NCBI RefSeq assembly: GCF_900107645.1 | Contig: NZ_FNQN01000007.1 | Coordinates: 162,898-192,897 of the forward strand | DNA length: 30,000 bases | Direction of reading: 5' to 3' | Source: Desulfuromusa kysingii | GTDB lineage: Bacteria; Desulfobacterota; Desulfuromonadia; Desulfuromonadales; Geopsychrobacteraceae | Part shown: positions 5,557 to 28,640 of the stretch, piece after piece | Layout of the letters: the number at the start of each line of letters is the position of its first letter | Numbering within the stretch: position 1 is the stretch's first letter | The notes under the pieces: model-generated | What the model saw: the letters and a program-made list of their open reading frames with translations, nothing else | Database searches by the model: none | What the model was told of the DNA's origin: nothing | Program-made: the position numbers and the translations under genes

Positions 5557-6021
5557 CTAAAGCTTCTTCAAAAGGTTGACCATTTCGATTGCAGTAAGAG
5601 CAGCATCTTCTCCTTTGTTGCCCGATTTCGTTCCAGCACGCTCAATCGCCTGCTCAATTGAATTAGTGGTTAATACACCAAAGGAGATCGGCACACCTAA
5701 TTCCAAAGAAACAGAAGCGATACCTTTGGCGACTTCCGCACAAACATAGTCAAAATGTGGTGTATCTCCTTTGATCACAGCACCAAGACAAATGATAGCA
5801 TCATACGTGCATTGTTCTGCTAACTTCTTGGCCACAAGGGGAATTTCGAACGCACCAGGAACGCGGATGACTTTCAGATTAGTTTTTTCAGCACCATGAC
5901 GACTCAGGGTATCAAGTGCTCCCTCGACAAGGCGTTCACAAATAAAACTATTAAAACGACTGACAACGATGGCAAACTTTTGTCCAGCAGCCCTAAGTTG
6001 TCCTTCTATAATTTCAGTCAT
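5557..6021 (-). CDS. ribH: 6,7-dimethyl-8-ribityllumazine synthase
   Basis: 154 aa. Contains [41 protein letters not shown] and the canonical length. Confidence 0.95.
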
Positions 6022-6024
6022 TAT

Positions 6025-7615: not shown

Positions 7616-7903
7616 TCAACCAAATCGATACTCGACCCCGAAAGTCCCGACTGGATACTCCCACTTTTGCAGTATGGTTTTGCCGCAAAGAACTCGGCAG
7701 GTTCCGCACTCCAAGCAACCAGCATAGTCAAACTGAATACTGCCATCATCATCTTTTTTATAGAGACCGGCTGGGCAGGCGGCAATCAATTTGGCAAATT
7801 CAACCGAGTCAGGATTCTCAACCAGTTCAATATGGGCATTATTTTCATCTACAAAAAACTTATTGACACCCAGTTTTACATCGACATTCACTACATTTTT
7901 CAT
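7616..7903 (-). CDS. fixX: Ferredoxin-like protein FixX
   Basis: 95 aa. VNVDVKLGVNKF.VDE...CPAGLYKKDDDGS..FDYAGCLECGTCR...WEYP.GTFGVE.R.G is nearly collinear with E. coli FixX as recalled. A 4-nt overlap with fixC is present. Confidence 0.9.
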   Translation of the reverse strand: MKNVVNVDVKLGVNKFFVDENNAHIELVENPDSVEFAKLIAACPAGLYKKDDDGSIQFDYAGCLECGTCRVLCGKTILQKWEYPVGTFGVEYRFG

Positions 7904-9282: not shown

Positions 9283-10068
9283 TTACTTATTCTTGAAATC
9301 AGGTGTGCGTTTTTCTTCAAAAGCCTTCATGCCTTCTTTAGAATCTTCTGACTCATAAGCAGCCCTGTCGAGCATACGCTCCAAATCCAGACCGTCATTG
9401 ATCCCCTGATTCAGATAACAGTTAACACCTTGCTTTGTCAGTCGGTTGGCAACAGGAGAATTGGCCGCAATTTTTTGCGCCATTTCCATCGTTCGATCGA
9501 TCAACTCTTCGGCTTTGTAAACTTCCTGAACCAAGCCGATCTGCAAAGCTTTTTCTGCACTGATCTTATCCGCGGTAAACATCATTTTTTTAGCCTGACC
9601 AGCTCCAATAGTACGAACCATCCGCTGCGAACCACCCCAGCCTGCAATCATGCCTAAAGATGTTTCAACCAGCCCCATTTTTGCAGTTTCACTTGCAACC
9701 CTAATATCACATGCAAGAGCAAGTTCAAGCCCGCCACCCAATGCATAACCATTAATGGCGGCAATCGTTGGAATTGGGAAATTTGCAAGTTTGGTTAAAA
9801 TCCCTCTGGCCCAAACATCGACCTCTTCCAGATCATCAATAGTCGGATCGGTAAACTCTCCAACATCAGCTCCGGCGCAGAAAGCCCTGTCACCTTCTCC
9901 GGTAAAAATGGCACAACGCAAGTCGGCTTCTTGCTTAAGTTCGTTCATAACGTCGCGGATATCTCGCAACATCTGACCATTCAAAATGTTGTATTTCGGC
10001 AAGTTCAGTGTCACCAAAGCGATCTTATTATTTACTTCACACTTAATAGTCTCGTATTTATATGCCAT
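9283..10068 (-). CDS. Enoyl-CoA hydratase/isomerase (crotonase) family protein in the CaiD position
   Basis: 261 aa. Crotonase oxyanion-hole motifs FCAGADV and INGYALGGGLELALACDIR, and C-terminal EGMKAFEEKRTPDFKNK. It starts 12 nt after the caiB stop. Carnitinyl-CoA dehydratase function is inferred from context only. Confidence 0.85.
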   Translation of the reverse strand: MAYKYETIKCEVNNKIALVTLNLPKYNILNGQMLRDIRDVMNELKQEADLRCAIFTGEGDRAFCAGADVGEFTDPTIDDLEEVDVWARGILTKLANFPIPTIAAINGYALGGGLELALACDIRVASETAKMGLVETSLGMIAGWGGSQRMVRTIGAGQAKKMMFTADKISAEKALQIGLVQEVYKAEELIDRTMEMAQKIAANSPVANRLTKQGVNCYLNQGINDGLDLERMLDRAAYESEDSKEGMKAFEEKRTPDFKNK

Positions 10069-10080
10069 GGTATTTTCCCT

Positions 10081-11334
10081 TTATTTATCTCGGTCGTTCC
10101 TGAAAATAACGCCTTTGTGATATAGCTCGTTAATTTGTTCTTCGGAGTAGCCCAAATCTTCTAGGATCACATCGTTGTCATAGCCGATATGTGGCATCGA
10201 ACGCCAAATCTTGGTTGGATTGACCTTGAACCGAGGAACCACATTGACTCCTTTATATTTTTCTTCCGTAGTCATCGTGTCCCAATCAACCCACATGTCA
10301 CGTGCTTTATATTGCGGATGCTCGACAACATCTTTGAATGACAATACTGGTGCAGCAGCAACCTTCATAGAATCGAAAATTTCAATATGTTCTTCGTTGG
10401 TTTTAGTTTTGAAATAAGCCTCAACCTTTGACTCAACATAATCTGCTTTGTCCCAGTTCAAATTGATGAAGGAGAAGCCTTCTTTGAAATCACCGACACC
10501 GTAAAGCTCTTCACAACCAATCATATTAAACAGCGTCTTCATCTGCTTTCGACCGAGAATATTGGTGAACAAAAAGCCATTTTTAGTTTTATAAATTCCG
10601 GTTGCCCCCTGAATAGGATCTTTTGCGCCAGGACGTGGGTACATTCGACCATCGTTCAAGTAATCGACCATATTATAGGTCGACAAGCGCATTAAAACTT
10701 CGGTCATGGCAATATCAACACTCTCCCCTTTACCCGTTTCACGGGCCCGGATCAGTGCTGCCAGAGTTGAAGACAAACTAAACATAGCCGTAAACAAGTC
10801 ACCAACATAAGGATAAGCTGGCATCGGCGATTCTGGAGTCCCGTTTTGGCTCATATAACCAGACATCGCTTGGGCAATACCATCGTAACAAGGTCTATCA
10901 ATATAGTTCGGATCTGCGTCCTCCTGGCCATAACCAGAGATACGGGTTATAACAAGCTTGGGATTGATCGCCCATAGGAACTCATCCGTAATCCCTTTAC
11001 GGATGAAACTGGGCCCCTTGCCACCGACAAGAAAAACATCTGCCTCTTTAACGAGTTTTTTGAAAACTGCCATTCCGTCTTCAGAGAAGATATCGAGCGA
11101 CATGGATCGGTCATTTCTATGCTCGTGCTCTGATGGTCGGTAGTTACGGTTAGTATCTCCACCGTTGACATTCTCCAACCAAATAACATCTGCTCCCCAT
11201 TCAGCCATAAAATGGGGACCTAGAGGCCCAGCGACTTCAATAGCAGAGAAAACAACCTTTACGCCTTGCAATACACCAAACTTAGGAGGTCTGTGCTCAG
11301 AATTATCAAAAAACTCCTTCACGTCATTTTTCAT
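10081..11334 (-). CDS. caiB: Family III CoA-transferase, CaiB-like (crotonobetainyl/gamma-butyrobetainyl-CoA:carnitine CoA-transferase)
   Basis: 417 aa. Long collinear similarity to recalled E. coli CaiB: PKFG.L.G.KVVFS.IE.AGP...AEWGA.VIW.EN, ETGKGES.DIAM.EV..R, NP..IWR.MP..G.D. Confidence 0.88.
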   Translation of the reverse strand: MKNDVKEFFDNSEHRPPKFGVLQGVKVVFSAIEVAGPLGPHFMAEWGADVIWLENVNGGDTNRNYRPSEHEHRNDRSMSLDIFSEDGMAVFKKLVKEADVFLVGGKGPSFIRKGITDEFLWAINPKLVITRISGYGQEDADPNYIDRPCYDGIAQAMSGYMSQNGTPESPMPAYPYVGDLFTAMFSLSSTLAALIRARETGKGESVDIAMTEVLMRLSTYNMVDYLNDGRMYPRPGAKDPIQGATGIYKTKNGFLFTNILGRKQMKTLFNMIGCEELYGVGDFKEGFSFINLNWDKADYVESKVEAYFKTKTNEEHIEIFDSMKVAAAPVLSFKDVVEHPQYKARDMWVDWDTMTTEEKYKGVNVVPRFKVNPTKIWRSMPHIGYDNDVILEDLGYSEEQINELYHKGVIFRNDRDK

Positions 11335-11551: not shown

Positions 11552-12694
11552 CTATTTGTTCCGGTATTCTTTAACTATGGATCTGCCCAAGGTAAGGATC
11601 ATCATTTCGTCGGTACCACCAGAAATACGGGAAGCACGGATGTCTCTCCAAGCACGGCTAGCACGATGATCACCGCAGATACCTACACCGGCAAGAATCT
11701 GCAGTGCGTCATCAGTAACTTCCTGAGCAGCAACAACGCAGTAGTATTTACACATCGCAGCGTAACCTTTATCTAGGGTGCCATCATCCACCATCTCGGC
11801 ACCGTCATAGATCATGTTGCGCATATTGGTGAGCTTGGCTTTCATATTTGCAAGCTTCAATTGAATCAGCTGTTGGCGTCCGATGGCCTCACCAAACTGT
11901 ACCCGTTGGTTAGCGTATTTGGCAGCATCTTCGAATGCGCAAAGAGCATAGCCATAACAGTAAAGACCCGAAACAACACGTTCCGTGTTGAAATCGTTCT
12001 TTTGCATATCAAACCCTGCACCTTCAGCCCCTAACATGTCGTCTTCTTCTAGTTCGACATTGTCCAGGTAAATTTCGCCTGCACTATTAGTTTTAAGACC
12101 CAATTTTTCCAGACCAGCAATAGTGACACCTTCTGCATTTGTCGGAACAAACCAGTTTGTATATTTGGTTTTGGTTTCCGCATCAAGAGCTGTAACTATC
12201 AGGTAGTCGCTGTAAGTAGCATCGGTACAAAACGTTTTTTGGCCGTTCAGGTAAACCTTACCGTCTTTACGGGTATACGTGGTCTGCATAGCCCCTAGGT
12301 CAGATCCAGCTCCCGGCTCAGTAGCCGCGTTTCCAACCTTGGTCAAACCGGTTTCCATTAATTCCAAAGCAATTTTTTTCTGCTTCTCATTCCCTTCCCT
12401 TAAGATAACGGGATAAGTTGATGAGAACCAGATGCATGCTGCATTACCGCCAAGCCGAAGAACTTCCTCCCAAGCGGCAACAAATGTGACCATTGCATTT
12501 TCTTCAAGTCCGCCGTATTCAACAGGATTAACAATTTGGTGCAAGCCCAATTCAGATAATTCTTTGCAAAATCTTTCGGGAAATTTGTGCTCGTTATCAC
12601 ACTCCTTAAAATAATCATCCCAATTTTCCCTAGTCATCAACTCTCTCATACTTGCAACAATCAAATTTTGTTCTTCAGTTAGTTTTACAGACAT
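11552..12694 (-). CDS. caiA: Acyl-CoA dehydrogenase family flavoprotein, CaiA-like (crotonobetainyl-CoA reductase)
   Basis: 380 aa, the same length as E. coli CaiA. Near-identical blocks: ATEPGAGSD, TTYTRKDGKVYLNG, CAFEDAAKYANQRVQFGEAIGR.QLIQ.K, AAMCKY, SGG.DEM.ILTLGR. AAGGAG RBS is present. Confidence 0.9.
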   Translation of the reverse strand: MSVKLTEEQNLIVASMRELMTRENWDDYFKECDNEHKFPERFCKELSELGLHQIVNPVEYGGLEENAMVTFVAAWEEVLRLGGNAACIWFSSTYPVILREGNEKQKKIALELMETGLTKVGNAATEPGAGSDLGAMQTTYTRKDGKVYLNGQKTFCTDATYSDYLIVTALDAETKTKYTNWFVPTNAEGVTIAGLEKLGLKTNSAGEIYLDNVELEEDDMLGAEGAGFDMQKNDFNTERVVSGLYCYGYALCAFEDAAKYANQRVQFGEAIGRQQLIQLKLANMKAKLTNMRNMIYDGAEMVDDGTLDKGYAAMCKYYCVVAAQEVTDDALQILAGVGICGDHRASRAWRDIRASRISGGTDEMMILTLGRSIVKEYRNK

Positions 12695-13199: not shown

Positions 13200-13981
13200 T
13201 CAGAACTTATGGATAAAGGCACTTACACTTTCACACCCAACATCTATGGCCACTTCTTGAACCGGCATCCCCCGCGCCAAGAGACAAAGAGCCTCAATGA
13301 GCCTTGCCTGTTGCCGCCATTGCCGAAAACTCATCCCTGTTCCTTTTGGAAAAAGTCGGGCCAGGGTTCTTTCCGTTGGTCCTGCTATTTTTGCCCAACT
13401 CTCGAGCGTACGGGTATCACAGGGATTTTCAGCAATGCTCCGGGTAATTTTCTGCAGACGACTGTCCGTAGGATGGGGAAGCAGTATCGGAGCCGTATCC
13501 AGAGGCTTAACCTGATCAATAATAACGTCCATCACTCTCGACTCATGACTGTTTTCTGCATAATCGGGAGATATTTCTGTCGCATGCTTGAAAAGTTCCC
13601 TCAATAGAGGGGTGACAGATACAACGCAACATTGGGTAGGGAATTCGGAAAAAAATCAGGCTTAAAATATGCATTACGCATCGCCAGAACACCAACAGCC
13701 TCGATCTTATGAAGAGTGTTCGACGGAATCCAAACCGCGGGATGGTTCGGAATCACCCAGAGACCTGTCACTGTTGTAACTTTCATCACTCCCTCGGAAG
13801 CGTATAAAAACTGTATGGGGATGTGCTGATGATAGGGACAACTTAAACCTTTATGGTAATTAAATGCTTTGGCTAGAACCTTCTGTGGCTTTTCCATAAA
13901 TCGTTCAAGAAAATCATCCGGCTCAACAATTGTCTTCTTCTCTACACCATTCGGCTTCATTTCGATAACAGGACTCACCAA
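13200..13981 (-). pseudogene. AraC/XylS-family regulator (cupin N-domain plus HTH C-domain) interrupted by a frameshift
   Basis: Two overlapping ORFs: the cupin part at 13601-13981 (a likely real ATG is at 13960) and the AraC HTH part at 13200-13604. The N-frame ends ...YLSPLY*. The other frame reads ..PLLRELFKH.., a typical linker of one continuous protein. The break lies at a CCCC run (13609-13612). Confidence 0.7.
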
Positions 13982-15284: not shown

Positions 15285-16856
15285 TCAAAAGTACTTTTTA
15301 AACCCTAGTCGTTCACCCTCTTCATGTAAATATTTCCAAAAGGAAATAAGCATAAGAGCCATCAAAAAGGAAATGGGCAAGCCACCCACAACAGCTGCCG
15401 TTTGACAAGCTTTCAATCCACCGACCAAAATGAGAGTTACAGCGAGAATGACAATAGAAAAACCTGCGATCATTCGCACGAGTCGGCAAGGCTCTGCTGA
15501 ACCATTTGTCAGTTGCATTGAACAAAAGAAAGCCGCTGAGTCAGCAGAAGTGATCATAAATACAAAAAGCATAAACATTGTGACTATTGAAAATAAATAA
15601 CCAAGTGGCCATTGACTGACCATAACGTAAAAACCAGCACCAATATCTTTTTGAATCTCTGCCCATAAAGATACATTGCCTGCCATCTCAGTATAAACAG
15701 CGGAGACTCCAAAGGTTGTGTACCAAACGATACAAGTGAAAACAGGGACAAAGGTACAAACAAGAAGCATTTCCCGCAAACTTCTCCCTTTAGAAATCCT
15801 TGCCAAAAAACCTCCAACAAAAGGAACAAATGAAAACCACCACCCCCAATAAAAGACCTTCCACCATCCCATCCACTGACCATCAAAAGCCTGTTCTGTC
15901 GCATCTGTATATAAACTTAAATATATTAAGTTACCGAAATATTCACCAGGGATCTGGATCATCCAATCTAAAATATGCCGAGTGGGTCCTAAAAACAAAA
16001 CATAACAAAAAACAGCTATTGCAATATATGCATTTACATGACTCAATGTTTTGATACCGGAGTCTAGTCCCCTCCAAACAGACCAGCAAAACCCCAATCC
16101 AATCAGACAGGTCACAAAGATCATCCGAGTTGTATCCAAATGAATACCAAATAAATAATTTATACCGAACCGTAATGAAATAAGCCCCAGCCCTATGGAT
16201 GTAGAAATACCTAAAAAGTTAACAACCATAGCAATCAATTCAAAGATCGTGCTTGGAACTTTTGAATAAGCTTTATCTCCCATCAAACCATAAAATGCAG
16301 TAGAGTAATTAATAGGCAAACCACACCTGAAAGCCGGAAGTCCGATACAAGCACCTGCAACAGCAAAAATGCCGAAGCCACCCAACCCCGTATGCATAAT
16401 TGTGATCTGGAACGACTGTCTTAATGCGTCCATAGTTCCCGCCTCAGCCCCTAGCGGCGGTTGCATCCAATGATACACAGGTTCAGCTACCGCCCAAACA
16501 ACAACCGAGACGGCAAAAGAGCAACATATAAGCATAGTCATCCATGAAAAAATTGAATATTCCGGTTTGTCATCTGGCTTACCTAGCTTCAACGAACCAT
16601 ATTTAGTAAAAGGTATAATAAATATAGGAAGGCAAAAAACAGCATCTAAACCAATGTACCACCAACCAAAATACCTGGCGATAAACATCTTGACTGAACC
16701 CATATGGGCATTCATTAATGCTGGATCAATTGCAGCGTAAATAACAATGGAAAGCAAGGCAATGACACTTCCCCCCGCCAAAAGGAAATTAATCTTTTCT
16801 TTTTCCGGTTCACTATCACTCTCATTCACCACCTGCGTAGTTTTCTCACAACTCAT
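15285..16856 (-). CDS. BCCT-family (betaine/carnitine/choline) transporter
   Basis: 523 aa and polytopic. Canonical BCCT Trp-box WWKVFYWGWWFSFVPFVGGFLARISKGRSLRE. AGGAG lies 6 nt before the ATG. Confidence 0.9.
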   Translation of the reverse strand: MSCEKTTQVVNESDSEPEKEKINFLLAGGSVIALLSIVIYAAIDPALMNAHMGSVKMFIARYFGWWYIGLDAVFCLPIFIIPFTKYGSLKLGKPDDKPEYSIFSWMTMLICCSFAVSVVVWAVAEPVYHWMQPPLGAEAGTMDALRQSFQITIMHTGLGGFGIFAVAGACIGLPAFRCGLPINYSTAFYGLMGDKAYSKVPSTIFELIAMVVNFLGISTSIGLGLISLRFGINYLFGIHLDTTRMIFVTCLIGLGFCWSVWRGLDSGIKTLSHVNAYIAIAVFCYVLFLGPTRHILDWMIQIPGEYFGNLIYLSLYTDATEQAFDGQWMGWWKVFYWGWWFSFVPFVGGFLARISKGRSLREMLLVCTFVPVFTCIVWYTTFGVSAVYTEMAGNVSLWAEIQKDIGAGFYVMVSQWPLGYLFSIVTMFMLFVFMITSADSAAFFCSMQLTNGSAEPCRLVRMIAGFSIVILAVTLILVGGLKACQTAAVVGGLPISFLMALMLISFWKYLHEEGERLGFKKYF

Positions 16857-17374: not shown

Positions 17375-17908
17375 TTACTTTAAAAATCTTAAAAGTTTAG
17401 ACGTTGGTTTTCTTTCAGGGCCGTGCGGATTATTCTCAGGATAACCTATTGCGATAAGTGCAATAACATCTTCATCTGTAGGAAGGTCAATCAGTTCTCT
17501 GACTGCGGTCCCATCAAAATCGCCCAAAATTACCGAACCAACACCAACATCTTGAGCAGCTAAACAAAAACCGTAACTGGCAATTCCCGCATCGAACATT
17601 GTCCATTCTTTAGACGTATGATAATAAACTGTACCAGAACTATCGGCACCTGATAAATTTAAAACCGCACTGATAACAATAACAGCTGAAGATCGAGCCA
17701 AATAACGCCTATTATAATCAGATGTTTCTGAAAGTTTGGCTTTTATCTCTTTATTTAATATACAGTTATAACGAATCGGTTGATAATTAGCCCAAGAAGG
17801 GGAGTTTTTAGCAAGATCAACAATTTGCTTGATCGTTTCAACAGAAACAGATTTATCGGTATACCTTCTAACACTATGTCTCTCTATAACAACGTCTTTA
17901 AGCTCCAT
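17375..17908 (-). CDS. Nitroreductase-family flavoprotein
   Basis: 177 aa. N-terminal VIERHSVRRYTDK, SPSWANYQP and C-terminal IAIGYP are typical of the NfnB/NfsA-like nitroreductase fold. Confidence 0.85.
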   Translation of the reverse strand: MELKDVVIERHSVRRYTDKSVSVETIKQIVDLAKNSPSWANYQPIRYNCILNKEIKAKLSETSDYNRRYLARSSAVIVISAVLNLSGADSSGTVYYHTSKEWTMFDAGIASYGFCLAAQDVGVGSVILGDFDGTAVRELIDLPTDEDVIALIAIGYPENNPHGPERKPTSKLLRFLK

Positions 17909-18189: not shown

Positions 18190-19683
18190 ATGTACATAGA
18201 AAAGTTAAAAGAATCAGACAGAGGACTTAAATTGAATAGCCAAACTCTTGCTTTTCTAGACTGCATTTCTGGTTTGGGGTACTTTCTCGAAGTTATAGAT
18301 GAAAAGGGATATTATACCTATATCTCTTCAAACTGCACTTACGATTCTACAACAGCTGAAGAATTATTAGGGAAGCACACAACAGAAGCTTTTGATTTAA
18401 CCTTAGAATCAAGTATCCTTTTAAATACTTTAAACACAGGAAAACCTTACAGAAACGTACATTTAAAATACAAATCAGCAAAAAAAAACAAAGAATTAAG
18501 TTTTCTTTACCATTCATTTCCCATAACAAGTAACAATATAATCATTGGTGCCATTGCAATTTACAAGTATTTAGACGAAGTAAAGAGAGCCATTCACTAT
18601 ATAGATACAGCAAATACAATTAAAGTTATAAACACAAAAGCAATTACGCAACCTCGAAGGGATGAGCTATTCACCTTTGATGATATAATTTGTTGCAGTG
18701 ATCAGATGGCAAAAACAATAAAACTTGCTCAAAGAATTTCTAAAACAGACGCCTCTGTCTTAATTGTCGGTGAGACGGGTACGGGAAAAGAACTAATAGC
18801 TCAAAGTATACACTCTTTCTACAAGGACAAATCACAACCTTTTGTTGCAGTCAATTGTGCTGCTATACCAGAGACATTACTCGAAAGCATTCTGTTCGGA
18901 TCAACAAAAGGCGCATATACTGACGCAGTGGACAAGCAAGGCTTATTTGAAGAAGCTCATGGAGGTACGATCTTCCTAGATGAATTACACACCCTGAGCA
19001 TTGAAATGCAAGCGAAACTCTTGCGCGTATTAGAAACCAAAACAATCAGAAAAGTTGGTGGCGACAAGACTATTCCCGTCAATGTTCGGGTTATTTCCGC
19101 GATGAATACAAATCCAATAAAAGCCATAAAGGAGAGCAAATTAAAAGCAGACTTATTCTATCGTATTGCCGTTATCACAATTCAAATTCCACCTCTCAGT
19201 GAGAGAGGAATCACAGACATAAAACTCCTGTCAAATCACTTCATTAAACTAATGAACAACAAGTTGGGGTTATCTATTGAGGGTTGCTCTGAAGCCACTT
19301 TAAATATTTTTAGCAATTACAAATTTCCGGGCAATTGTCGAGAACTCAGTCACATAATAGAACACTCTGCGAATATGATTGATGAGAATGAGCGTTTAAT
19401 TGAGCCCTATCACTTACCATATTATATCAGCGAATCGCTGTCAGGTGGGATAAACACTCCCTCATCACCCCACCCGCAACTTAAACCTAGTCAATATGAA
19501 ATTGGGGATTACAAGATTATCCATCAAAAGGCGCTTAATGATTTTAACGACAAATTTAACACTGAGTACTTGACGTATGTGCTCAAAGAGTTTAGTGGCA
19601 ACATATCAAAAGCAGCTCGAGCAATTAATGTTTCGAGACAGCACCTACATGGACTCGTTACAAAATACAAAATACAAGCATAA
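18190..19683 (+). CDS. Sigma-54-dependent transcriptional activator (sensor domain plus AAA+ plus HTH), candidate regulator of the cai/fix-type units
   Basis: 497 aa. A PAS-like N-terminal domain of about 150 aa. AAA+ core with GETGTGKE, GSTKGAYTDA and GGTIFLDELH. C-terminal HTH ISKAARAINVSRQHLHGLVTKY. The gene is very AT-rich. Confidence 0.88.
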   Translation: MYIEKLKESDRGLKLNSQTLAFLDCISGLGYFLEVIDEKGYYTYISSNCTYDSTTAEELLGKHTTEAFDLTLESSILLNTLNTGKPYRNVHLKYKSAKKNKELSFLYHSFPITSNNIIIGAIAIYKYLDEVKRAIHYIDTANTIKVINTKAITQPRRDELFTFDDIICCSDQMAKTIKLAQRISKTDASVLIVGETGTGKELIAQSIHSFYKDKSQPFVAVNCAAIPETLLESILFGSTKGAYTDAVDKQGLFEEAHGGTIFLDELHTLSIEMQAKLLRVLETKTIRKVGGDKTIPVNVRVISAMNTNPIKAIKESKLKADLFYRIAVITIQIPPLSERGITDIKLLSNHFIKLMNNKLGLSIEGCSEATLNIFSNYKFPGNCRELSHIIEHSANMIDENERLIEPYHLPYYISESLSGGINTPSSPHPQLKPSQYEIGDYKIIHQKALNDFNDKFNTEYLTYVLKEFSGNISKAARAINVSRQHLHGLVTKYKIQA

Positions 19684-19715: not shown

Positions 19716-21278
19716 CTATTCACCTTTGAGGTTTTTCTTCTGAATCTTCCCAGTACAGGTATGCTTAAAGTCTTCTACAATTTCGATAATTTCAGGGACT
19801 TTAAATGAAGCAAGCCTGTCGGAGCAAAACTGCCTAATGTCTTCAATCTCAAGGGATTTTCCCTCATAAAACTTCACATAAGCTTTTACTGCCTGTTCCC
19901 TAATAGGGTCCGGAACACCGACAACAGCCGCCTCCTCAATAAAACTGTGGGAGGTTAAAACATTTTCAACTTCGCTTGCAGAAATATTTTCCCCTGAGCG
20001 CTTAATCAAATTATTTTTCCTATCAACAAAATACAGCCACCCATCCTCATCCAAAAAGCCTTTATCACCAGTATGCAGCCAATCATTATCATCATACAAT
20101 TTATAAGTTTCCTGTTCGTCGTTATAATACCCTAATATTAGATTTTCCCCTCTGACACCTTTAAGACAAATTTCACCAACACATGTTGCAGGCAAAGTAT
20201 CATTATTATCATCTACAATTTTTATTTTGTATGGATCATATGTTTTCCCAACTGACGGCCACCTTGCTTCTCCCGTACACACATCTGCGATATTACAAAC
20301 AATTGTTTCGGTCAAACCGTAACAATTGAAAAGTTTAACATTGTAACGATTTTCAAAAGATTCCTTTTCCTCGGTAGACATACAAAGTGAAAAGTACATT
20401 AAGCGTAAGCTATGTTTACGCTCATTTTCCGCTTTCGGTTGCAGCATCAAGGTTCTTATAATCATGGGGATTGCTTCAGCAATGGTGATTTTGTAATCAC
20501 GAATTTGCTGCCAAAATTTGGTCGCGTGGTATTGCTCCTGCACAACCACGACAGCACCCTTAGTAAGGATTGGCATCACGGCAATAGCCTGCCAGTCGAT
20601 ATGAAAACAAGGAAAGACAGTAAAAAATCTATCGTCGGAAGTTAATGCCATTTGATTCGCGTGGAATTCCCCAGCATAAAGCAAGTTATAATGAGTAAAC
20701 GTTGCCCCCTTAGGCATTGATGTTGTACCTGATGTAAACAATACTTCTGCGACATCGCCTGGGTGCAATTCACGATGCTCCTTCAATGTGTCTGTTTGTC
20801 GCGATAACTCCTTCGCAAAATTCAAGTAACCATCGACTTCTCTGTCGCTTCGAGCTAAAATTCTATGTTTTAGGTGTGAGCAATCTATTTTTTCGTGTAA
20901 GTCTAGAAATTTTTCTTCAGTCAGCAGAATACTGACCTTACACTTGTCCATGATATAGCGGCACTCAACATTCGTATAGTGCACATTCATCGGAACAATG
21001 ATCGCTCCAATTCGCATCAGACCAAACATAGCATACAAAAATTCAGGGCTATTATAAAGTTGAACAGCAACCAGATCCCCCTTTTCAAGCCCCAAGCTCA
21101 AAAAAAGATTTGCTGCTTTAATTATATTTGTATAGGTATCACCATAGGTAAACTGAGAAACACTGCCTTCTCTTGTTTCATAGATCATAAAAAGGTTATC
21201 TTTATCAAGTTTGAAACGCTCTTCCCATAAATCACCAATATTTTTTTTATCTACCCTAGTGTTCATCTTGACAGTCAT
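19716..21278 (-). CDS. caiC: AMP-forming acyl-CoA ligase, CaiC-like (carnitine/crotonobetaine-CoA ligase)
   Basis: AMP-binding motif LFTSGTTSMPKG. CaiC-like blocks FHIDWQAIA, IPMIIRTLMLQP, YGLTETIV, WLHTGD, RSGENIS and a C-terminal GKIQKKNL. The start is set at ATG 21278, giving 520 aa (close to the 517 aa I recall for E. coli CaiC). The track ORF runs to 21458 with an implausible 60-aa extension. Confidence 0.85.
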   Translation of the reverse strand: MTVKMNTRVDKKNIGDLWEERFKLDKDNLFMIYETREGSVSQFTYGDTYTNIIKAANLFLSLGLEKGDLVAVQLYNSPEFLYAMFGLMRIGAIIVPMNVHYTNVECRYIMDKCKVSILLTEEKFLDLHEKIDCSHLKHRILARSDREVDGYLNFAKELSRQTDTLKEHRELHPGDVAEVLFTSGTTSMPKGATFTHYNLLYAGEFHANQMALTSDDRFFTVFPCFHIDWQAIAVMPILTKGAVVVVQEQYHATKFWQQIRDYKITIAEAIPMIIRTLMLQPKAENERKHSLRLMYFSLCMSTEEKESFENRYNVKLFNCYGLTETIVCNIADVCTGEARWPSVGKTYDPYKIKIVDDNNDTLPATCVGEICLKGVRGENLILGYYNDEQETYKLYDDNDWLHTGDKGFLDEDGWLYFVDRKNNLIKRSGENISASEVENVLTSHSFIEEAAVVGVPDPIREQAVKAYVKFYEGKSLEIEDIRQFCSDRLASFKVPEIIEIVEDFKHTCTGKIQKKNLKGE

Positions 21279-21447
21279 GATAATACCTGCTTTTTTCCCT
21301 TTAATCCGCAGCCTGATGGGAGCAAACGAATCAATAAAGAATTGAATATTCAATCTGACGATCTGTCTTTCAAATGAAGTGCTGACCCAATTTGCATCAA
21401 ATTTGGAAGGGGAATATATTCGGCTTGAACTTGAAAATGTGAACTCC

Positions 21448-21484
21448 GATTTAACCATAGAAACAACATCTCTATGGTTAAATC
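21448..21484. repeat. Perfect 14-bp inverted repeat in the fixB-caiC spacer
   Basis: GATTTAACCATAGA (21448-21461) / TCTATGGTTAAATC (21471-21484) with a 9-nt spacer. No U-tract follows it on the minus strand. Confidence 0.6.
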
Positions 21485-21528: not shown

Positions 21529-22443
21529 CTACCTAAGCTTCGCGATCAACTTAGGTAGAATTTCGTAAACATCTCCGACGAGACCGAGATCACAAGACTT
21601 AAAAATAGGGGAGTTTTCGTCCTTATTGATGGCAACAATAGTTTTTGCCTGATTGATACCGACCATATGCTGGACCTGCCCAGAAGTCGCCAGAGAAATG
21701 ACAAGTTCCGGCTTCAGCATCATACCGGTTATACCGATATAAACAGCCTTCGGCAGCCAGCCGTTGTTTTCAGCCACAGGGCGGGAACAACCCAGATCAG
21801 CACCCAGCAGAGTTGCCAGTTCACGGCACATTTCAACATCGGCCTCTTCTTTGAATCCACGCCCCATGTCAACTACTTTCTTAGCAATAGCGAGATTGGA
21901 TACAATTTCTTGCTTAGCCTGAGTTTCAATTTTTTTGATTTTGTTGCTTGGTACAACATCAACAAAATGTGTATCTGAAACTGAAGAAACAGCAGGATCA
22001 GTAATCTCGAAGACGCCTGCGCCACTGGTAATAACAGCTGTATTACTGGTAAGTTTTTCACTCCTGAACGCTGCACCACCATAAACCATTCTTTGAGTGG
22101 TTTTATCTTCAAGTGAAGAGATCCCGGAAACAACGCAGGTATCAAGGTAAACAGCAAGCTTGCCAGCCAACAACTTACCCCGCACAGAGTTATTCACCAA
22201 AACCAAGTCCGCATTATTTGATTGCAGTTTTTCAGAAATCATCTTAGCGGAATCTTCGATCATTGTTGACGCATCACACCTATAAACATAAACGTTTTTT
22301 GCCCCATATGAAGCCGCCAGATCCTTTAACTCTTCGTCAAATATAATAATAGAAAATTGTGTGGATAGATTAGATGCACCACTCGCAAGCTCTTTAATGC
22401 TCATTTCGGTATCAGCAATTATAAACGTATTGACATATGACAT
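21529..22443 (-). CDS. fixB: Electron transfer flavoprotein alpha subunit-like FixB
   Basis: 304 aa. The C-terminal FAD-binding half has the ETF-alpha signature ...AVYIGITGMMLKPELVISLATSGQVQHMVG...IVAINKD.... It starts 12 nt after fixA, with an AGGAGG RBS. Confidence 0.88.
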   Translation of the reverse strand: MSYVNTFIIADTEMSIKELASGASNLSTQFSIIIFDEELKDLAASYGAKNVYVYRCDASTMIEDSAKMISEKLQSNNADLVLVNNSVRGKLLAGKLAVYLDTCVVSGISSLEDKTTQRMVYGGAAFRSEKLTSNTAVITSGAGVFEITDPAVSSVSDTHFVDVVPSNKIKKIETQAKQEIVSNLAIAKKVVDMGRGFKEEADVEMCRELATLLGADLGCSRPVAENNGWLPKAVYIGITGMMLKPELVISLATSGQVQHMVGINQAKTIVAINKDENSPIFKSCDLGLVGDVYEILPKLIAKLR

Positions 22444-22455
22444 GATATGTACCTC

Positions 22456-23205
22456 CTATTTGTTCAAAAATTGGATAAGGGCATCAACCATTTCATCGGT
22501 ATCGCCTTTAACAATTTGCAGTTTCCGATCTTTTTGCTCTGGAGCCAAATCGTTCAGAACTTCGGTACTCCCAGCTATTCCTGAGAGATCGACAGATAAT
22601 TCATTTACCTTTTTTTTACCTGCAGACATGATGTCTCTCATGCCCGGAATTGTCGGTACGTTAATTTCGGAGGTAACAGAAATTACGGCAGGCAAGGGAA
22701 TTTCAAGAACTTCAACTTCACCCTCTAGGACTCTCTCGACTCTAATGATTCCTTCTTGGAGGTTGATATCATTAATCTCATTGACAACTGGTAAATCCAT
22801 GATAGCACCAACCTGATTACCAACCTGTTGAGAATACAAGTCAGAAGAACCAGTTCCAAAAATCAACAAATCAAACTCATTCATTGTTTTCACAGCTTTA
22901 ACAATGGCTTTTGCAGTTACTAACGAATCGTTAAACTGTTGATCGGTTATGACCACATTTAATTCATCGGCGCCACGAGACAAAATGTCTTTCCTGATTT
23001 TCGTTTTACTCAATGCGTCTCCGCCAATAGTCAGGACCTTCATACTGCCACCGGTTTCTTTTGCCAATTGCTTCCCAGCTTCCAAAGCGCTCAAATCATA
23101 TTGACCAATTTTCCACTGAGCTTTATCGAATGACAGTTCCTGATTAGGCAAAACCGCGATATCTTGCTCTTCTGGAACAACCTTAATACACGCAATAATG
23201 TTCAT
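22456..23205 (-). CDS. fixA: Electron transfer flavoprotein beta subunit-like FixA
   Basis: 249 aa. MNIIACIKVVPEEQDIAV...GQYDLSALEAG...ILSRGADEL..V...FDLLIFGTGSSDLYSQQVG...IPLPAVISV is collinear with recalled E. coli FixA. Confidence 0.9.
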   Translation of the reverse strand: MNIIACIKVVPEEQDIAVLPNQELSFDKAQWKIGQYDLSALEAGKQLAKETGGSMKVLTIGGDALSKTKIRKDILSRGADELNVVITDQQFNDSLVTAKAIVKAVKTMNEFDLLIFGTGSSDLYSQQVGNQVGAIMDLPVVNEINDINLQEGIIRVERVLEGEVEVLEIPLPAVISVTSEINVPTIPGMRDIMSAGKKKVNELSVDLSGIAGSTEVLNDLAPEQKDRKLQIVKGDTDEMVDALIQFLNK

Positions 23206-23571: not shown

Positions 23572-24174
23572 TTAAACTTTTTTTGGCTTCGAGGCGTCAG
23601 GTTTAGACATTTTCTCTGCGACAATAAATCCATAGACGACAAAGCAGAGCGATAGTATTTGCTGAAATACCAGCAAACGCTTGCCCTGAATCATCATCAA
23701 CAGTGCAATGCTGCCATTCATCAAAATAAAGCAGACCCAGCCATTGAGATTGTCTTTAGCTAATAGACTACTACCAACAAAAAAGGTGAATAAGATGGTC
23801 AACTCTAAGAATTGAGAAAAAGAATGAAGACCGCCAAAATCATAAAGGCTACAGGAGATACCGAAAACTAAGAAGAGATAAGTTGAGTACGTAATAACAC
23901 GAGAAAAAGTCTTACTTGTTGCATCTGGTCCCTTTATGGAAGCATAAAGTCCTAAGTACATCGTAGGGAGACTGCCAACCTCGATCGAAGCAGCGATCCA
24001 ACTATGGCTCCCAATATACAACACAGTCCAAGCAGGAACCCCCATCATATAAACAGACCAGCCTATAATCCTTAGACGCCGTTTTTTATTGTATTTTTTC
24101 CCTTCAGCTAACGCAAAAAAAACTTTACTTAAAAGGTAAAAAAGCCCTCCCCAAACTTGCAATATCAAATCCAT
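23572..24174 (-). CDS. Integral membrane protein of unknown function, possibly a PnuC-like vitamin transporter
   Basis: 200 aa with about 6-7 hydrophobic helices. The two-halves pattern and the segment LNGWVCFILMNGSIALLMMIQG....Q.ILSLCFVVYGF recall PnuC-family repeats. The resemblance is judged by eye only. Confidence 0.6.
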   Translation of the reverse strand: MDLILQVWGGLFYLLSKVFFALAEGKKYNKKRRLRIIGWSVYMMGVPAWTVLYIGSHSWIAASIEVGSLPTMYLGLYASIKGPDATSKTFSRVITYSTYLFLVFGISCSLYDFGGLHSFSQFLELTILFTFFVGSSLLAKDNLNGWVCFILMNGSIALLMMIQGKRLLVFQQILSLCFVVYGFIVAEKMSKPDASKPKKV

Positions 24175-24572
24175 AATAAATTCCTGAAATTGACTCTATC
24201 GCACCTCCCCACAACGGTTACAATATGATCCGGCTAAGGGGGGCCCACTCATGATCAAACTCATCTAGAGTGACAGAAATCACATTCAGCATAAAATGTT
24301 CCAATTCACATCCCAATAATTCTATAAAAGCAGGTGGGAGTCTGATTGGTTCAGAATTAGAGAAGAAATGAAAAATAAAAGGCAAGGACACCTAACAAAC
24401 TCAATGCCAACCCGCAACTGGCGATCGGCATTGAGTTAATCTTCAATCATATTGGAAAAGACACACATAAGATTTTTTCAATTAATGGATTGTCTAGGCA
24501 GACTGCGGCACAACCAATGAAATATCTCTAACATTCACTTCATACCAACAAAAACAGAACGGAAACCGAATT

Positions 24573-25371
24573 CTATTTATTCTTAAACACTGGGATTCTT
24601 TTTTCGGAAAAAGCCCTTACTCCTTCGGCAGTATCTTCTGAATCAAAAGTCAACCGTGTATAGGTTGTCTCTAAATGATAACTTCCATCCTCAGTCATTC
24701 CACTTGCAGCTGAATCCAACAATGCCTTCAAGCACCGCACGCCAATAGGAGCTTTCGCAGCAATGGAGCCAGCGACCTCCATTGCTCTGGAAAGCAAATT
24801 TTCCTCAGCCACTACTTCCTGAACGATATCCCACTCTTTGGCGACCTCAGAAGTAATTCTCTCACCCGTATAAAGCCACTTTTTGATCTTAGGTATTGAA
24901 AATCTTTGACCTAGAACAAGCGTTGCCCCCCCAATTCGGAAACATTCCAAAATTGATTTCTGGAAACGCATATTTCGTATTATCTGCAGCAATGGCGTAG
25001 TCGCACGTTAAAGCGAGAACCATTCCACCACCCAATACATAGCCGTTGAGTGCCGCTATCATTGGGACAGGCAGGCTACTCATCTTTTTCAGAGCAGCCC
25101 TTGCAATTTCATTCTGTTTTACAGCTTCATCGGACGTTTTTGGCCCTTCCCTGACATCATCACCAGCAGAAAAAGCTTTCTCTACCGCAGAAGACAACAC
25201 AACCACACGCACTTCATCCCTACCGACCAACCCTTTAAGATCTTCACTTATTTCGCTAAATTCTGCAAAGACACCTAAGGTAAAGAGGTTCAGTGGTGGG
25301 CGATTAAAAACCAAATGAGCTATTTTATTCTCAATGTCACAATACATAAATTGTTTTTCAATTTTCATCAT
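24573..25371 (-). pseudogene. Second crotonase-family enoyl-CoA hydratase, frame broken at a G7 run
   Basis: The N-part (track ORF 24889-25380) carries FSAGDDV and LNGYVLGGGMVLALTCDY...FPEINFGMFPNWGG. The C-part (24573-24992) continues in another frame with ..ATLVLGQRFSIPKIKKWLYTGERI...EGVRAFSEKRIPVFKNK. The join falls exactly at the C7 (+) / G7 (-) run at 24926-24932. The likely start is ATG 25371, preceded by GAGGTGAAGGGA. Confidence 0.8.
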
Positions 25372-25390
25372 TCCCTTCACCTCTACTCAT

Positions 25391-25422
25391 AAAAAAAGAC
25401 CACAACATGCGTAGTGGTCTTT
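25391..25422 (-). terminator. Rho-independent terminator after the MaoC gene
   Basis: The minus strand reads AAAGACCAC-(10 nt)-GTGGTCTTT followed by TTTTTTTA. It lies between the MaoC stop (25438) and the crotonase start. Confidence 0.6.
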
Positions 25423-25437
25423 GATTTGATTCGACGA

Positions 25438-25863
25438 TCAATTATCTGTCCTTGCTAGGCAAACAGCATCCCCAACAGCAACAACGTCTCCATCTTGATT
25501 TATACCCTTAGTGCCAATAAACAGCCTGTTTCTTTCAACATTTATTTCATTGACTGTGCCCGTGACTGTCACAGTGTCACCAGCATAAACCGGTGCAGTA
25601 TATTTAATGCTGAGTCTTGCATCAATGCCACCAGCGACAAGCTTTGAAAGCATCGCAGAAACCATACAATCGAGATAAACACCGTGTGCAATGCATTTGC
25701 CATAAATTGTTGTTTTTGCATATTCTGGATCCATATGAATCGGATCATGATCATCAATTGCATCCGCAAATGCGTGCAACGTCTTCTGCGTGATTTCCCT
25801 TACAACGCTGGCAGTATCTCCTACCTTAAATTGATCAATTGTTTTACCTAATTTTTCAGCCAT
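25438..25863 (-). CDS. MaoC-like (R)-specific enoyl-CoA hydratase/dehydratase (hotdog fold)
   Basis: 141 aa. FADAIDDHDPIHMDPEYAK.T.YGK.IAHG is the MaoC/PhaJ hydratase motif (D..P.H....A.......IAHG). GAGGAG RBS is present. Confidence 0.85.
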   Translation of the reverse strand: MAEKLGKTIDQFKVGDTASVVREITQKTLHAFADAIDDHDPIHMDPEYAKTTIYGKCIAHGVYLDCMVSAMLSKLVAGGIDARLSIKYTAPVYAGDTVTVTGTVNEINVERNRLFIGTKGINQDGDVVAVGDAVCLARTDN

Positions 25864-25908
25864 GGCTCTCTCCTCATAGGAACATATTTTTTTGATATTC
25901 TACAAATA

Positions 25909-25924
25909 AGCAAGGGACATACCA
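25909..25924 (-). promoter_or_regulatory. Probable sigma-54 promoter for the MaoC gene
   Basis: The minus strand reads TGGTATGTCCCTTGCT, with correct GG/GC spacing. The leader is about 36 nt. Confidence 0.55.
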
Positions 25925-26014
25925 AAAAAAACAGCCATATAGGGTCACTTGAAATCAACCTGTAACACTTCGCTAGCAAGAGTTTTACAGTTTCGTAAAG
26001 TCACTTCTGACAAT

Positions 26015-26632
26015 CTATTTTACAAAGGAATTATTTCTTCTTTCATAATCAACTGTCGTTACTGGGCCATGGCCTGTATAGAGTTTTGTGTCTGGTGGAA
26101 ATTTAAATATCTTACTCTTTATCGTCGTCATAAGCGTTTCATAATCACCACCGTTAAAATCGGATCGACCCACAGAGCCGGAAAAAATAACATCCCCTAC
26201 GAAAGCAAGGGTATGATCGGGAAAGTGCAGGGTCAAACTTCCCGGAGTATGCCCTGGAGTGGCTATCACTTCACACTTTTCACCAAGGAACTCATACATA
26301 CCCGGGTCAAATGGTTCATAATCCACCATTCCACAAGACTGTGAATACATGCACTCCTTCCATGTGTCGACTTCTTCCTTAATCAAATAACCATCGGCTG
26401 GATTAATGTAAATTTTTGCCCCAGTAAGTTTTGAGAATGCAGTAGCAGCGTAAAAGTGATCGAGATGAATATGAGTGATCAGGATGTGTGTCACCTGGAG
26501 ATCTTCATTTCTTATAATATTGGCGATTTCCATAGAGTAGTCGCCTGGATCAATAAGAACAGCTTTCCCTTTATTTGAGATGAGATAGCAATTTGCTTCA
26601 TAAGCGCTGAGCTGAAAGGGACGAATTTTCAT
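26015..26632 (-). CDS. MBL-fold metallo-hydrolase (glyoxalase II / YcbL-like)
   Basis: 205 aa. Metal motif THIHLDH, TPGHTPGS, GDVIFSGSVGRSD and GHG. AAGGTGA RBS is present. Confidence 0.85.
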   Translation of the reverse strand: MKIRPFQLSAYEANCYLISNKGKAVLIDPGDYSMEIANIIRNEDLQVTHILITHIHLDHFYAATAFSKLTGAKIYINPADGYLIKEEVDTWKECMYSQSCGMVDYEPFDPGMYEFLGEKCEVIATPGHTPGSLTLHFPDHTLAFVGDVIFSGSVGRSDFNGGDYETLMTTIKSKIFKFPPDTKLYTGHGPVTTVDYERRNNSFVK

Positions 26633-26803: not shown

Positions 26804-26848
26804 ACAAAAAAAGCCCCTAAGAATAATTTATCTCAGGGGCTTTTTTCA
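26804..26848 (-). terminator. Rho-independent (bidirectional-looking) terminator after the CaiT-like gene
   Basis: AAGCCCCT...AGGGGCTT hairpin (26811-26842), flanked by an A-run on the + strand (a T-run on the minus strand) and a T-run on the + strand. It lies about 20 nt downstream of the stop at 26863. Confidence 0.7.
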
Positions 26849-26862
26849 TTTTTTACAAACCC

Positions 26863-28407
26863 TTATTCTGTATCATCACCCCAATAGGTTTTAATATCCC
26901 GGAAGAAAGCACCAATAATTAATAGCGAAATGACAAATGCGGGGTAACCTGCCCACACCATCGCGTTCTTAACTGTTTGTATTCCGCCAATATAGAGGAA
27001 ACCGATCGACAGGATACAAGTAACAACGCACCAGAACAGCCGGGTGAATTTTGAAGGGTCCTCATTAGCCGGAAGATTCGGTTGAGATACTAGAGCATTG
27101 CCGTAAACAGCACTCTGGATAAAAGTCCATGCTGAAACAAACGCATAGAACAGGAGAATGATCATAATCAGATTCGAGAACGGAAGTTGGTCAATAACAT
27201 AGGTAATAGCAGAATAAGCATCTTGATCAACCAGAGCTTTATATTGTGCTGGGTCACCAAGATAAGTATCAAGGGCAAAATTACCCATTGTCCAGAAAAA
27301 GATTGCGCAACCTGCTGAACTCGCAAGCACAATACCAAGGACACATTGGCGGACGGTACGCCCCTTACAAAGCTTGCTGTAAAATTGCCCACCACCCAAA
27401 ACAGAAGCAATGAAGAAAAGAGCATAAAAGATCGTCCAAGATTGTGACCACTGACTGGTATTCAAACTCATAGGAATAAAATTTTGTATCCACAGCGCTG
27501 TTGAAGCCACAATATTGTTACAATATTGGCTTGTATTTCCGACTAAAAAGATAAAAAAAGCGACACCGAAGAACATAAATAGCCTTGCGTTACTGATAAG
27601 AGTCATCCCCTTTTTCAAGCCTGTATACATAGCAATAGCCATACAAATAACAACGACTAATAAAATTAAAACATCAAGTGAAAGCGTATGCTTCACACCG
27701 AAAACTTTGCTGAAAAATGTTCCAACGATCGGCACACTAACAGCCAATGAGTAGCCTGCATTGGAGAAAATAATGCCCACTAAAAATACGCAGTCGATGA
27801 CTTTACCAAGTTTCCCATTAGCTCTTTTTGCGCCGATCAAACTTTCACACGCAGCGCTAACCCGTGAAGTGTCTTTTTTCTTAACAAAAAGTAAAAAGGC
27901 TAAAGCAATCCCGATAATGGCATAAGACGAAAAGCCTAGAATACCCCAGTGGAATACCGGGTAAGCCATTGACCACTTCACCGCCTCTTCACTAAACGGC
28001 GTAATTCCAAATGGAGGTCCTGAGATATAGTAGTAAAATTCAATAAACACCCAATAGACAATACTGGCTGAGGAACTATAAGCAAAAAGCATTGCATAAA
28101 AAGAAAATGTGCTGCCATCTGGTTTCTCATCACCAAAGCGTTTATTGGCATATTTCCCAAATGCAAAATAAAGACACAACCCAACACAGGAAAACTCAAA
28201 TACGAGGAGCATCCAGCCAAAATTCTGGTTCATAAAATGGAAGGTATCAGTCATAAAAATATTCATGCCTTCAGGATTCGTAAATAGCGCTCCTGCAAAA
28301 CCAAGAACGATAAGAATTGCAGGAATACTTACCCAATAGTCGATACTACGATCGACTCCATCTTTACTTGCTGCCTTCTTCACTGACATATCCATTTCTT
28401 TCTGCAT
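26863..28407 (-). CDS. caiT: BCCT-family transporter, CaiT-like, with a divergent Trp-box
   Basis: 514 aa. FIEFYYYISGPPFGITP and VFHWG closely resemble recalled E. coli CaiT (IEIYYYISTPPFGLEP, LFHWG). The TM8 box reads SWTIFYALFFIAS....CKGRTVRQ. AAGGAG RBS is present. The symbol is assigned by similarity, so the substrate is uncertain. Confidence 0.85.
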   Translation of the reverse strand: MQKEMDMSVKKAASKDGVDRSIDYWVSIPAILIVLGFAGALFTNPEGMNIFMTDTFHFMNQNFGWMLLVFEFSCVGLCLYFAFGKYANKRFGDEKPDGSTFSFYAMLFAYSSSASIVYWVFIEFYYYISGPPFGITPFSEEAVKWSMAYPVFHWGILGFSSYAIIGIALAFLLFVKKKDTSRVSAACESLIGAKRANGKLGKVIDCVFLVGIIFSNAGYSLAVSVPIVGTFFSKVFGVKHTLSLDVLILLVVVICMAIAMYTGLKKGMTLISNARLFMFFGVAFFIFLVGNTSQYCNNIVASTALWIQNFIPMSLNTSQWSQSWTIFYALFFIASVLGGGQFYSKLCKGRTVRQCVLGIVLASSAGCAIFFWTMGNFALDTYLGDPAQYKALVDQDAYSAITYVIDQLPFSNLIMIILLFYAFVSAWTFIQSAVYGNALVSQPNLPANEDPSKFTRLFWCVVTCILSIGFLYIGGIQTVKNAMVWAGYPAFVISLLIIGAFFRDIKTYWGDDTE

Positions 28408-28624: not shown

Positions 28625-28640
28625 AGCAGAATGCATGCCA
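28625..28640 (-). promoter_or_regulatory. Probable sigma-54 promoter for the CaiT-like gene
   Basis: The minus strand reads TGGCATGCATTCTGCT, with correct spacing and a -12 box of CTGCT. It implies a long leader of about 200 nt. Confidence 0.5.

Follow-up and report, generated by a model that had tools for sequence, protein, structure and literature searches.

What the accessory genes of a carnitine-like gene cluster do is the question raised by the stretch of Desulfuromusa kysingii DNA analysed here (the window, 30,000 nt; all feature coordinates are positions in it). Its cluster resembles the cai-fix genes, by which Escherichia coli and Proteus convert carnitine anaerobically to gamma-butyrobetaine, and contains in addition genes for an MBL-fold hydrolase (mbl), a MaoC-type hydratase (maoC) and a second, broken crotonase (ECH2). 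The initial annotation had proposed that crotonase and MaoC racemize carnitine at the level of coenzyme A (CoA) esters, with the hydrolase releasing the product, or else that the module adapts the pathway to a different substrate. Our comparisons identify mbl, maoC and ECH2 as real, conserved accessory genes of their host cluster, and the cluster itself as a paralog of cai, here termed cai*, rather than the canonical carnitine pathway. Judging from its sequences, cai* probably reduces a compound other than carnitine, in sulfur- or sulfate-reducing bacteria as well as in bacteria of the human gut.

A paralog of the cai cluster

Besides the three genes, the cluster comprises a CaiT-like BCCT transporter gene (26863-28407) with a sigma-54 promoter (28625-28640), and genes for an acyl-CoA reductase/dehydrogenase (CaiA*, 11552-12694), a family III CoA-transferase (CaiB*, 10081-11334), a CoA ligase (CaiC*, 19716-21458), a crotonase (ECH1, 9283-10068) and FixABCX (fixA-fixB, 21529-23205; fixC-fixX, 7616-9186), all on the minus strand. 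Identity to the E. coli proteins is 29% for CaiT, 51% for CaiA, 45% for CaiB, 42% for CaiC, 32% for CaiD (ECH1) and 39-63% for FixABCX, which is linked to the cluster; in canonical loci of related bacteria the values are 70-71% for CaiT, 76-82% for CaiA, 67-79% for CaiB and 54-61% for CaiC. When scored against equivalog models, CaiA* fell below the CaiA cut-off (496 bits against 540, NF002885), and the best match to the CaiD model (NF002936, cut-off 500) in the genome reached 150 bits, with ECH1, which is not a CaiD ortholog, at 140 bits. Three other cai* genomes (G126, G820 and G821) each encode a canonical CaiA (720-724 bits) together with a CaiA* (485-502 bits), two named Pseudodesulfovibrio isolates, P. 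tunisiensis and sp. JC047, have both cai and cai*, and a search of the whole of G126 with the CaiD profile returned nothing above the cut-off.

The 14 CaiA* sequences formed one clade (FastTree support 0.99). Of the alignment columns in which 90% or more of the canonical CaiA sequences agree, 32 have the canonical residue in no CaiA*. The acidic residue D/E357, present in 107 of 108 canonical sequences, is Ser in CaiA*, Y85 is Ala and F242 is Val or Ile, while the catalytic Glu240 is kept. Side chains in CaiA* have mostly become smaller at the changed positions, a hint that the pocket may have grown rather than shrunk. CaiB* retains Asp169, with Glu249 replaced by Asn in the window and by Asn or Ala across cai*. 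The tryptophan box (W142/W147/W323/W324/Y327) is the primary site at which CaiT binds its substrate (PMC3442516). In the window's transporter it reads W, F, F, F, S (W147F, W323F, W324F and Y327S, alongside M331G), and the transporters of gut loci have W, F, M, F, P. Every aligned cai* transporter has an altered box, with Phe at 147, Phe or Met at both 323 and 324, and Ser, Pro or Ala at 327, and keeps Arg262. Dimethylsulfoniopropionate (DMSP) as cargo of the CaiT-like protein is disfavoured, since the DMSP transporter DddT keeps the box (PMC13270143).

The parallel change in transporter, reductase and transferase, together with the coexistence of cai* with canonical cai, points to a different substrate, in keeping with the second proposal of the initial annotation. 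Each enzyme is of a known fold, the system as a whole being a variant of the cai/fix type.

Conserved accessory genes in at least two transcription units

Pfam matches and reconstruction of the open reading frames (ORFs) bore out the presence of all three genes on the minus strand: mbl (26015-26632; 205 aa, the size of GloC/YcbL; Lactamase_B, E=1.5e-27), maoC (25438-25863; 141 aa, single hot-dog, MaoC/PhaJ type; MaoC_dehydratas, E=4e-16) and ECH2 (24573-25371), which is frameshifted and read as two overlapping ORFs (24889-25371 and 24573-24992, both ECH_1). They lie, as annotated, between the fixAB-caiC unit and the CaiT-like gene, but a gene for a PnuC-like membrane protein (23572-24174, minus strand; 200 aa) also stands in this interval, between the module and fixA. 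The PnuC-like gene is kept beside ECH2 in three related loci (L014, L019 and L022), and contig C14 carries a paralog of it at 50% identity.

Comparison of ~20-kb loci (absence from whole genomes is stated only for ECH2 and CaiD, for which whole genomes were searched) confirmed that the trio is conserved: the order mbl-maoC-ECH2 recurs in four further loci at 64-87% identity, one of them from Geopsychrobacteraceae, the family of the window. The ECH2 family comprises about two dozen sequence clusters (47-100% identity) and the MaoC family 12 (59-100%), and every homolog of either whose genomic context was retrieved lies in a cai* locus. Two Pseudodesulfovibrio genomes have cai* with transporter-mbl-maoC. 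On gut metagenome contigs, ECH2 is accompanied by an MBL of lower similarity and by a GlcD-like dehydrogenase that has a second electron-transfer flavoprotein (ETF), but only sometimes by MaoC. Few genomes have the cluster (2 of 233 from the order, and 1 of 401 sampled from the phylum), and the low G+C content of the window's 17-29 kb (36-42%, against 46% for the contig) fits horizontal transfer.

A sigma-54 -24/-12 element (25909-25924, minus strand) lies 61 nt upstream of maoC. With 2 mismatches to the consensus it is not significant alone; an equivalent element stands 61-74 nt upstream of maoC in all five closely related loci, the window counted. The TGACA-type half-site at 26008-26014 (strand undefined), ~88 nt upstream of the -24 element, is a candidate activator site: its spacing to that element is the same as at fixA, and such a half-site occurs 130-165 nt upstream of maoC in four of the five close loci. 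No sigma-54 site was found ahead of mbl. Hairpins on the minus strand follow the transporter gene (26804-26849, z=-7.2; a strong terminator before mbl), maoC (25390-25422, z=-2.7; with a U-run, and with a similar element in orthologs) and ECH2 (24398-24437, z=-5.4; terminator-like). The module therefore consists of at least two transcription units, although the terminator between maoC and ECH2 is probably leaky. The promoter and terminator first ascribed to maoC hold up. The three genes do not form one operon, and a single operon from the transporter gene through ECH2 was rejected on account of the terminators and the internal maoC promoter.

The frameshift in ECH2 (+1) falls in a G7 run (24926-24932, minus strand; a C run on the plus strand). 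Deleting one G from this run restores a 264-aa crotonase that is colinear with the intact ECH1; its identity to an unbroken ortholog of 265 aa is 71%. ECH2 is intact in four close orthologs, none of which has a G run at the break site, and the break was seen in this assembly only. Identity to orthologs is 66-73% before the break and 62-70% after it, and non-synonymous divergence lies within or just above the range between orthologs. The lesion is therefore either very recent or an assembly error. An old pseudogene was rejected, as divergence after the break is about equal to that before it, and so was a programmed frameshift or conserved phase variation, as the four orthologs lack the G run. 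Of note, a second apparent homopolymer lesion within the window lies at a T7 run (13649-13655) and splits an AraC-type regulator gene (13200-13981) that is oriented divergently to an MFS gene.

Predicted activities of the crotonases and MaoC

In all 18 aligned members of the ECH2 family the Glu144 position is occupied by Val, while the Glu164 equivalent is invariant, as are Asp71, Asn87, Arg91, Asn146 and His230. ECH1 has both glutamates of the two-Glu hydratase signature; ECH2 fails this signature and instead carries that of one-Glu isomerases, i.e., a crotonase fold with the Glu164 equivalent and no Glu144, the single Glu164 being the enoyl-CoA isomerase pattern (PMC9804861). A structure model of ECH2 presented a crotonase fold (predicted local distance difference test score 90.6; Z 32.4, root-mean-square deviation 1.6 over 260 residues), and fold searches with this model and the ESM Atlas returned generic crotonases only. 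Because Val has taken the place of the water-activating Glu, the broken crotonase is, contrary to its first description, apparently no ordinary second hydratase; we regard it as a cai*-specific crotonase, isomerase- or eliminase-like, for which one-base reactions other than isomerisation are possible. Its likeness to one-Glu crotonases of the Delta3,Delta2-enoyl-CoA isomerase pattern extends to the fold and the Glu164 equivalent only: it is at most 33% identical to solved ones, and differs by its Asn146, Arg91 and His230 and by an Asp that invariably takes the place of Ala98. Among solved structures, short-chain hydratases come closest to ECH1.

MaoC matched PhaJ/MaoC structures (PDB 1IQ6 and 5CPG; E=1e-13 to 1e-14), which are (R)-specific enoyl-CoA hydratases and share with it the single hot-dog size and the Asp/His dyad. 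The dyad, Asp38/His43, is intact, aligns to that of 1IQ6 (PhaJ Asp31/His36; PMC2698920) and is conserved in 12 of 13 aligned rows, the remaining row being truncated. MaoC differs from PhaJ in its identity (~30%), in acidic substitutions in or near the motif, and in its cai* context; extra conserved Asp residues also lie near the active site. The assignment of L-carnitinyl-CoA to the crotonase-type (S) geometry in the initial annotation is right by Cahn-Ingold-Prelog reasoning, but its restriction of the hot-dog fold to the D series is unsafe. In eight canonical cai loci (L034:12865-13803 and L124-L130), the box of which is intact, a double hot-dog gene of the hydratase-2 type replaces caiD, between caiC and fixA. 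Either such hot-dog folds act on L-carnitinyl-CoA, or those clusters use another isomer. The fold therefore does not settle the stereo-series, and at these loci it appears not to be decisive for the R-specificity of MaoC. Gonyol and other onium acids of presumed R type were considered as possible MaoC substrates and set aside; the lost box lends them no support.

An MBL-fold hydrolase common to cai and cai*

The metal motif of the MBL, HxHxDH, is intact, and its best solved matches are annotated as hydroxyacylglutathione hydrolase. Its length (~205 aa, as in GloC/YcbL) and motif are those of GloC/YcbL-type enzymes and of MBLAC2, an acyl-CoA thioesterase (PMC7949124) that bears out the earlier statement that some MBL-fold enzymes hydrolyse thioesters. 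On the other hand, it is 32% identical to E. coli GloC, scored far below the GloB cut-off (75 bits against 200.8, TIGR03413) and falls into a separate, cai-linked clade, in a tree whose deep nodes lack support. In canonical cai loci of Desulfovibrionaceae, an MBL gene lies upstream of caiT in five of seven, its product 43-51% identical to that of the window, and window-type MBLs together with those beside canonical caiT form one clade (ultrafast bootstrap 99). This shared clade argues that the MBL is a general accessory of cai pathways and not part of an epimerisation branch. A search for CaiE in the canonical Desulfovibrionaceae loci with an MBL beside caiT gave no hit, and members of the MBL clade are candidates to fill the role of CaiE, which is listed as unknown (PMC2131755). 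By analogy, an O-acyl esterase role would have a precedent in Propionibacterium, where a hydrolase of the cai cluster has been linked to acylcarnitine loss (PMC11007987). Detoxification by glyoxalase II and D-lactate dehydrogenase was rejected: the dehydrogenase occurs in gut-type loci only, and the MBL of these loci is ~32% identical and may not be an ortholog.

A proposed route and its rivals

With somewhat more than even confidence, we propose that MaoC and ECH2 funnel isomers of an acyl-CoA into a 2-enoyl-CoA, and that the role of the MBL is to regenerate free CoA or to cleave an ester. Which reactions take place, in which direction they run and on what kind of substrate, we infer from the gene content, paralogy and residues described above. 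The substrate would be a carnitine-like acid without the C4 trimethylammonium head, carrying a neutral, bulkier or displaced group; the altered CaiT-like antiporter would exchange it for product, and CaiC* and CaiB* would load it with CoA. ECH1 would dehydrate the S-type and MaoC the R-type 3-hydroxyacyl-CoA; if the two share one enoyl-CoA they would epimerise it, so that the chemistry first proposed may hold, for a compound other than carnitine. ECH2, with its single Glu, would shift a double bond from the 3,4 to the 2,3 position. Reduction of the 2-enoyl-CoA would fall to CaiA*, supplied with electrons by FixABCX or, in the gut clusters, by a unit of 2-hydroxyacid dehydrogenase and ETF. The MBL would serve cai-type pathways as a housekeeping hydrolase that frees CoA from dead-end thioesters or cleaves the substrate's lactone or O-acyl ester.

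Several observations weigh against this scheme and against a substrate other than carnitine. CaiB* lies above the carnitine-family cut-off (476 bits against 413, NF002914), and CaiC* marginally so (653 against 651, NF005947). The canonical CaiA set was not monophyletic under the rooting used, and cai* may be nested within canonical cai rather than sister to it. The delta-type cai* transporter keeps four aromatics (W142, F147, F323 and F324), and residual cation-pi binding by it is possible; a second BCCT that keeps W323/W324 is, moreover, found in or near many cai* loci. That CaiA D357 and CaiB E249 contact the ammonium group is a presumption from solved structures. ECH2 was not found in the whole genomes of the two Pseudodesulfovibrio that have cai*, nor MaoC in most gut cai* loci, so each appears non-essential to cai*. 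In addition, loci were reached via ECH2 or MaoC homologs, which inflates co-occurrence, and several gut loci are close kin.

An alternative that we consider unlikely is that cai* is a divergent but ordinary system for the respiration of L-carnitine or longer betaines, its range widened by the three genes (for example, acylcarnitine hydrolysis by the MBL, C5 betaines). The full cai-like gene set with fixABCX, the MBL clade common to canonical clusters, the Propionibacterium hydrolase (PMC11007987) and the partly kept transporter aromatics would all suit it, yet the system would be redundant with canonical cai in three genomes, and it sits poorly with the Met, Phe and Pro in the box of gut transporters and the fixed differences at 32 CaiA columns. 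Carnitine racemization proper, i.e., interconversion of L- and D-carnitinyl-CoA by ECH1 and MaoC via crotonobetainyl-CoA with release of the product by the MBL, seems to us distinctly improbable. Although both catalytic Glu are present in ECH1 and the PhaJ dyad in MaoC, which also has extra conserved Asp residues near its active site, and although CaiB* and CaiC* exceed the carnitine-family cut-offs, the transporter, reductase and transferase are changed at residues fixed in canonical cai, canonical cai is present as well in three cai* genomes, and no CaiD exceeds the cut-off in G126. MaoC is optional, and the hot-dog hydratases that replace CaiD in canonical clusters leave the stereo-series unset by fold. 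We know of no abundant natural source of D-carnitine. It has been described as an industrial waste product, and a carnitine racemase would not be new, this activity having been ascribed already to E. coli CaiD (PMC2131755).

Rather unlikely, taken as a whole, is an undescribed anaerobic pathway in which an onium or hetero-substituted acid enters, possibly via the second BCCT, and the single Glu of ECH2 expels dimethyl sulfide, an amine or a thiol in a CoA-dependent elimination; the neutral enoyl-CoA would then be the electron acceptor reduced by CaiA*, or be hydrated by ECH1 or MaoC, and the CaiT-like protein would move the neutral product. Such a route would account for the acid lost in CaiA*, and would be consistent with the one-base active site of ECH2 and its invariant Asp71, Asn87, Arg91, Asn146 and His230, with the short-chain hydratases nearest to ECH1, with a locus that adds Bcd- and Hbd-like genes beside ECH1-ECH2, and with the box-bearing BCCTs near many loci. 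However, cai* is kept without ECH2 in two genomes, CaiB*, which would handle the onium acid, also lacks Glu249, and the smaller residues of CaiA* suggest a larger pocket. As for the three genes being decaying passengers unconnected with the cluster, we give this hardly any credence. The ECH2 frameshift, the separate transcription units and a G+C content below that of the genome would fit it, but the preservation of the gene order mbl-maoC-ECH2 (four further loci, 64-87% identity), the conserved maoC promoter and the lack of surplus amino-acid change 3' of the frameshift largely refute it.

Relation to known systems

With the E. coli and Proteus cai-fix system, cai* shares an Arg262-bearing BCCT antiporter, a CoA ligase, an Asp169-bearing family III CoA-transferase, a reductase with the CaiA-type catalytic Glu, a crotonase and FixABCX. 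It differs in its 29-51% identity, altered box, want of a CaiD ortholog and of caiE in the cluster, and in its extra genes: besides ECH2, maoC and mbl, these are a sigma-54 activator gene (18190-19683, plus strand) and a nitroreductase-family gene (17375-17908, minus strand), both conserved with the cluster, and the gene for the second BCCT (15285-16856, minus strand; nearest solved relatives TmaT and BetT), found in part of the cai* loci. The canonical clusters without CaiD (Propionibacterium freudenreichii, PMC11007987; Desulfovibrionaceae L124-L130 and L034) likewise have a hot-dog hydratase and an added hydrolase; in the Desulfovibrionaceae loci this hydrolase is an MBL of the group that is sister to the window's. 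Unlike cai*, they have a canonical CaiA and, in the loci examined, a CaiT with a full box; their double hot-dog protein is weakly similar to the single-domain MaoC, and no match to ECH1 or ECH2 was found in the canonical loci examined. Incidentally, four canonical Desulfovibrionaceae loci have a conserved ~540-aa membrane gene between fixB and fixC (L124:15194-16813; also L126, L128 and L130).

The bbu cluster of Emergencia timonensis (PMC8364193), compared by its published description, shares an acyl-CoA dehydrogenase homolog, family III CoA-transferases, a BCCT, a thioesterase and a link to riboflavin, riboflavin genes being induced together with it; crotonases, a ligase and FixABCX are absent from its six genes. 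In the window and in L019, ribBA-ribH (window 5557-7263) follows fixX, as does ribBA in L022. No description of the cai* cluster was found in the literature searched, a coverage that leaves out most subscription journals.

In public annotation, cai* proteins bear the names crotonobetainyl-CoA dehydrogenase and carnitine antiporter. Where cai genes are counted in gut metagenomes to mark the conversion of carnitine to butyrobetaine, the tally may therefore include a pathway that does something else. If our scheme is true, cai* points to a further natural electron acceptor used by gut and environmental anaerobes, and its transporters would be, to our knowledge, the first family of BCCT antiporters to lack the tryptophan box.

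Individual cai* loci varied further. The gut loci examined (e.g., L023:11509-14630) mostly lack fixCX within the locus, and their GlcD-like flavin adenine dinucleotide (FAD) dehydrogenase with its own ETF pair is a candidate electron-donor arm. In one gut locus (L028:6430-7370) an internal deletion begins at the activator and reaches into the middle of caiB, and rpoN and a box-bearing BCCT adjoin the cluster. Another cai* locus adds a Bcd-like dehydrogenase and an Hbd-like 3-hydroxyacyl-CoA dehydrogenase (L031:5120-11807), which suggests an oxidative branch. Finally, a search of 50% representatives yielded a third cai-like variant with no named function (L113:2927-8836), the CaiA of which is 46% identical to that of the window and 45% to that of E. 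coli; its transporter box is altered (F147, F323, T324 and A327), and its CoA-transferase has Gly at position 249.

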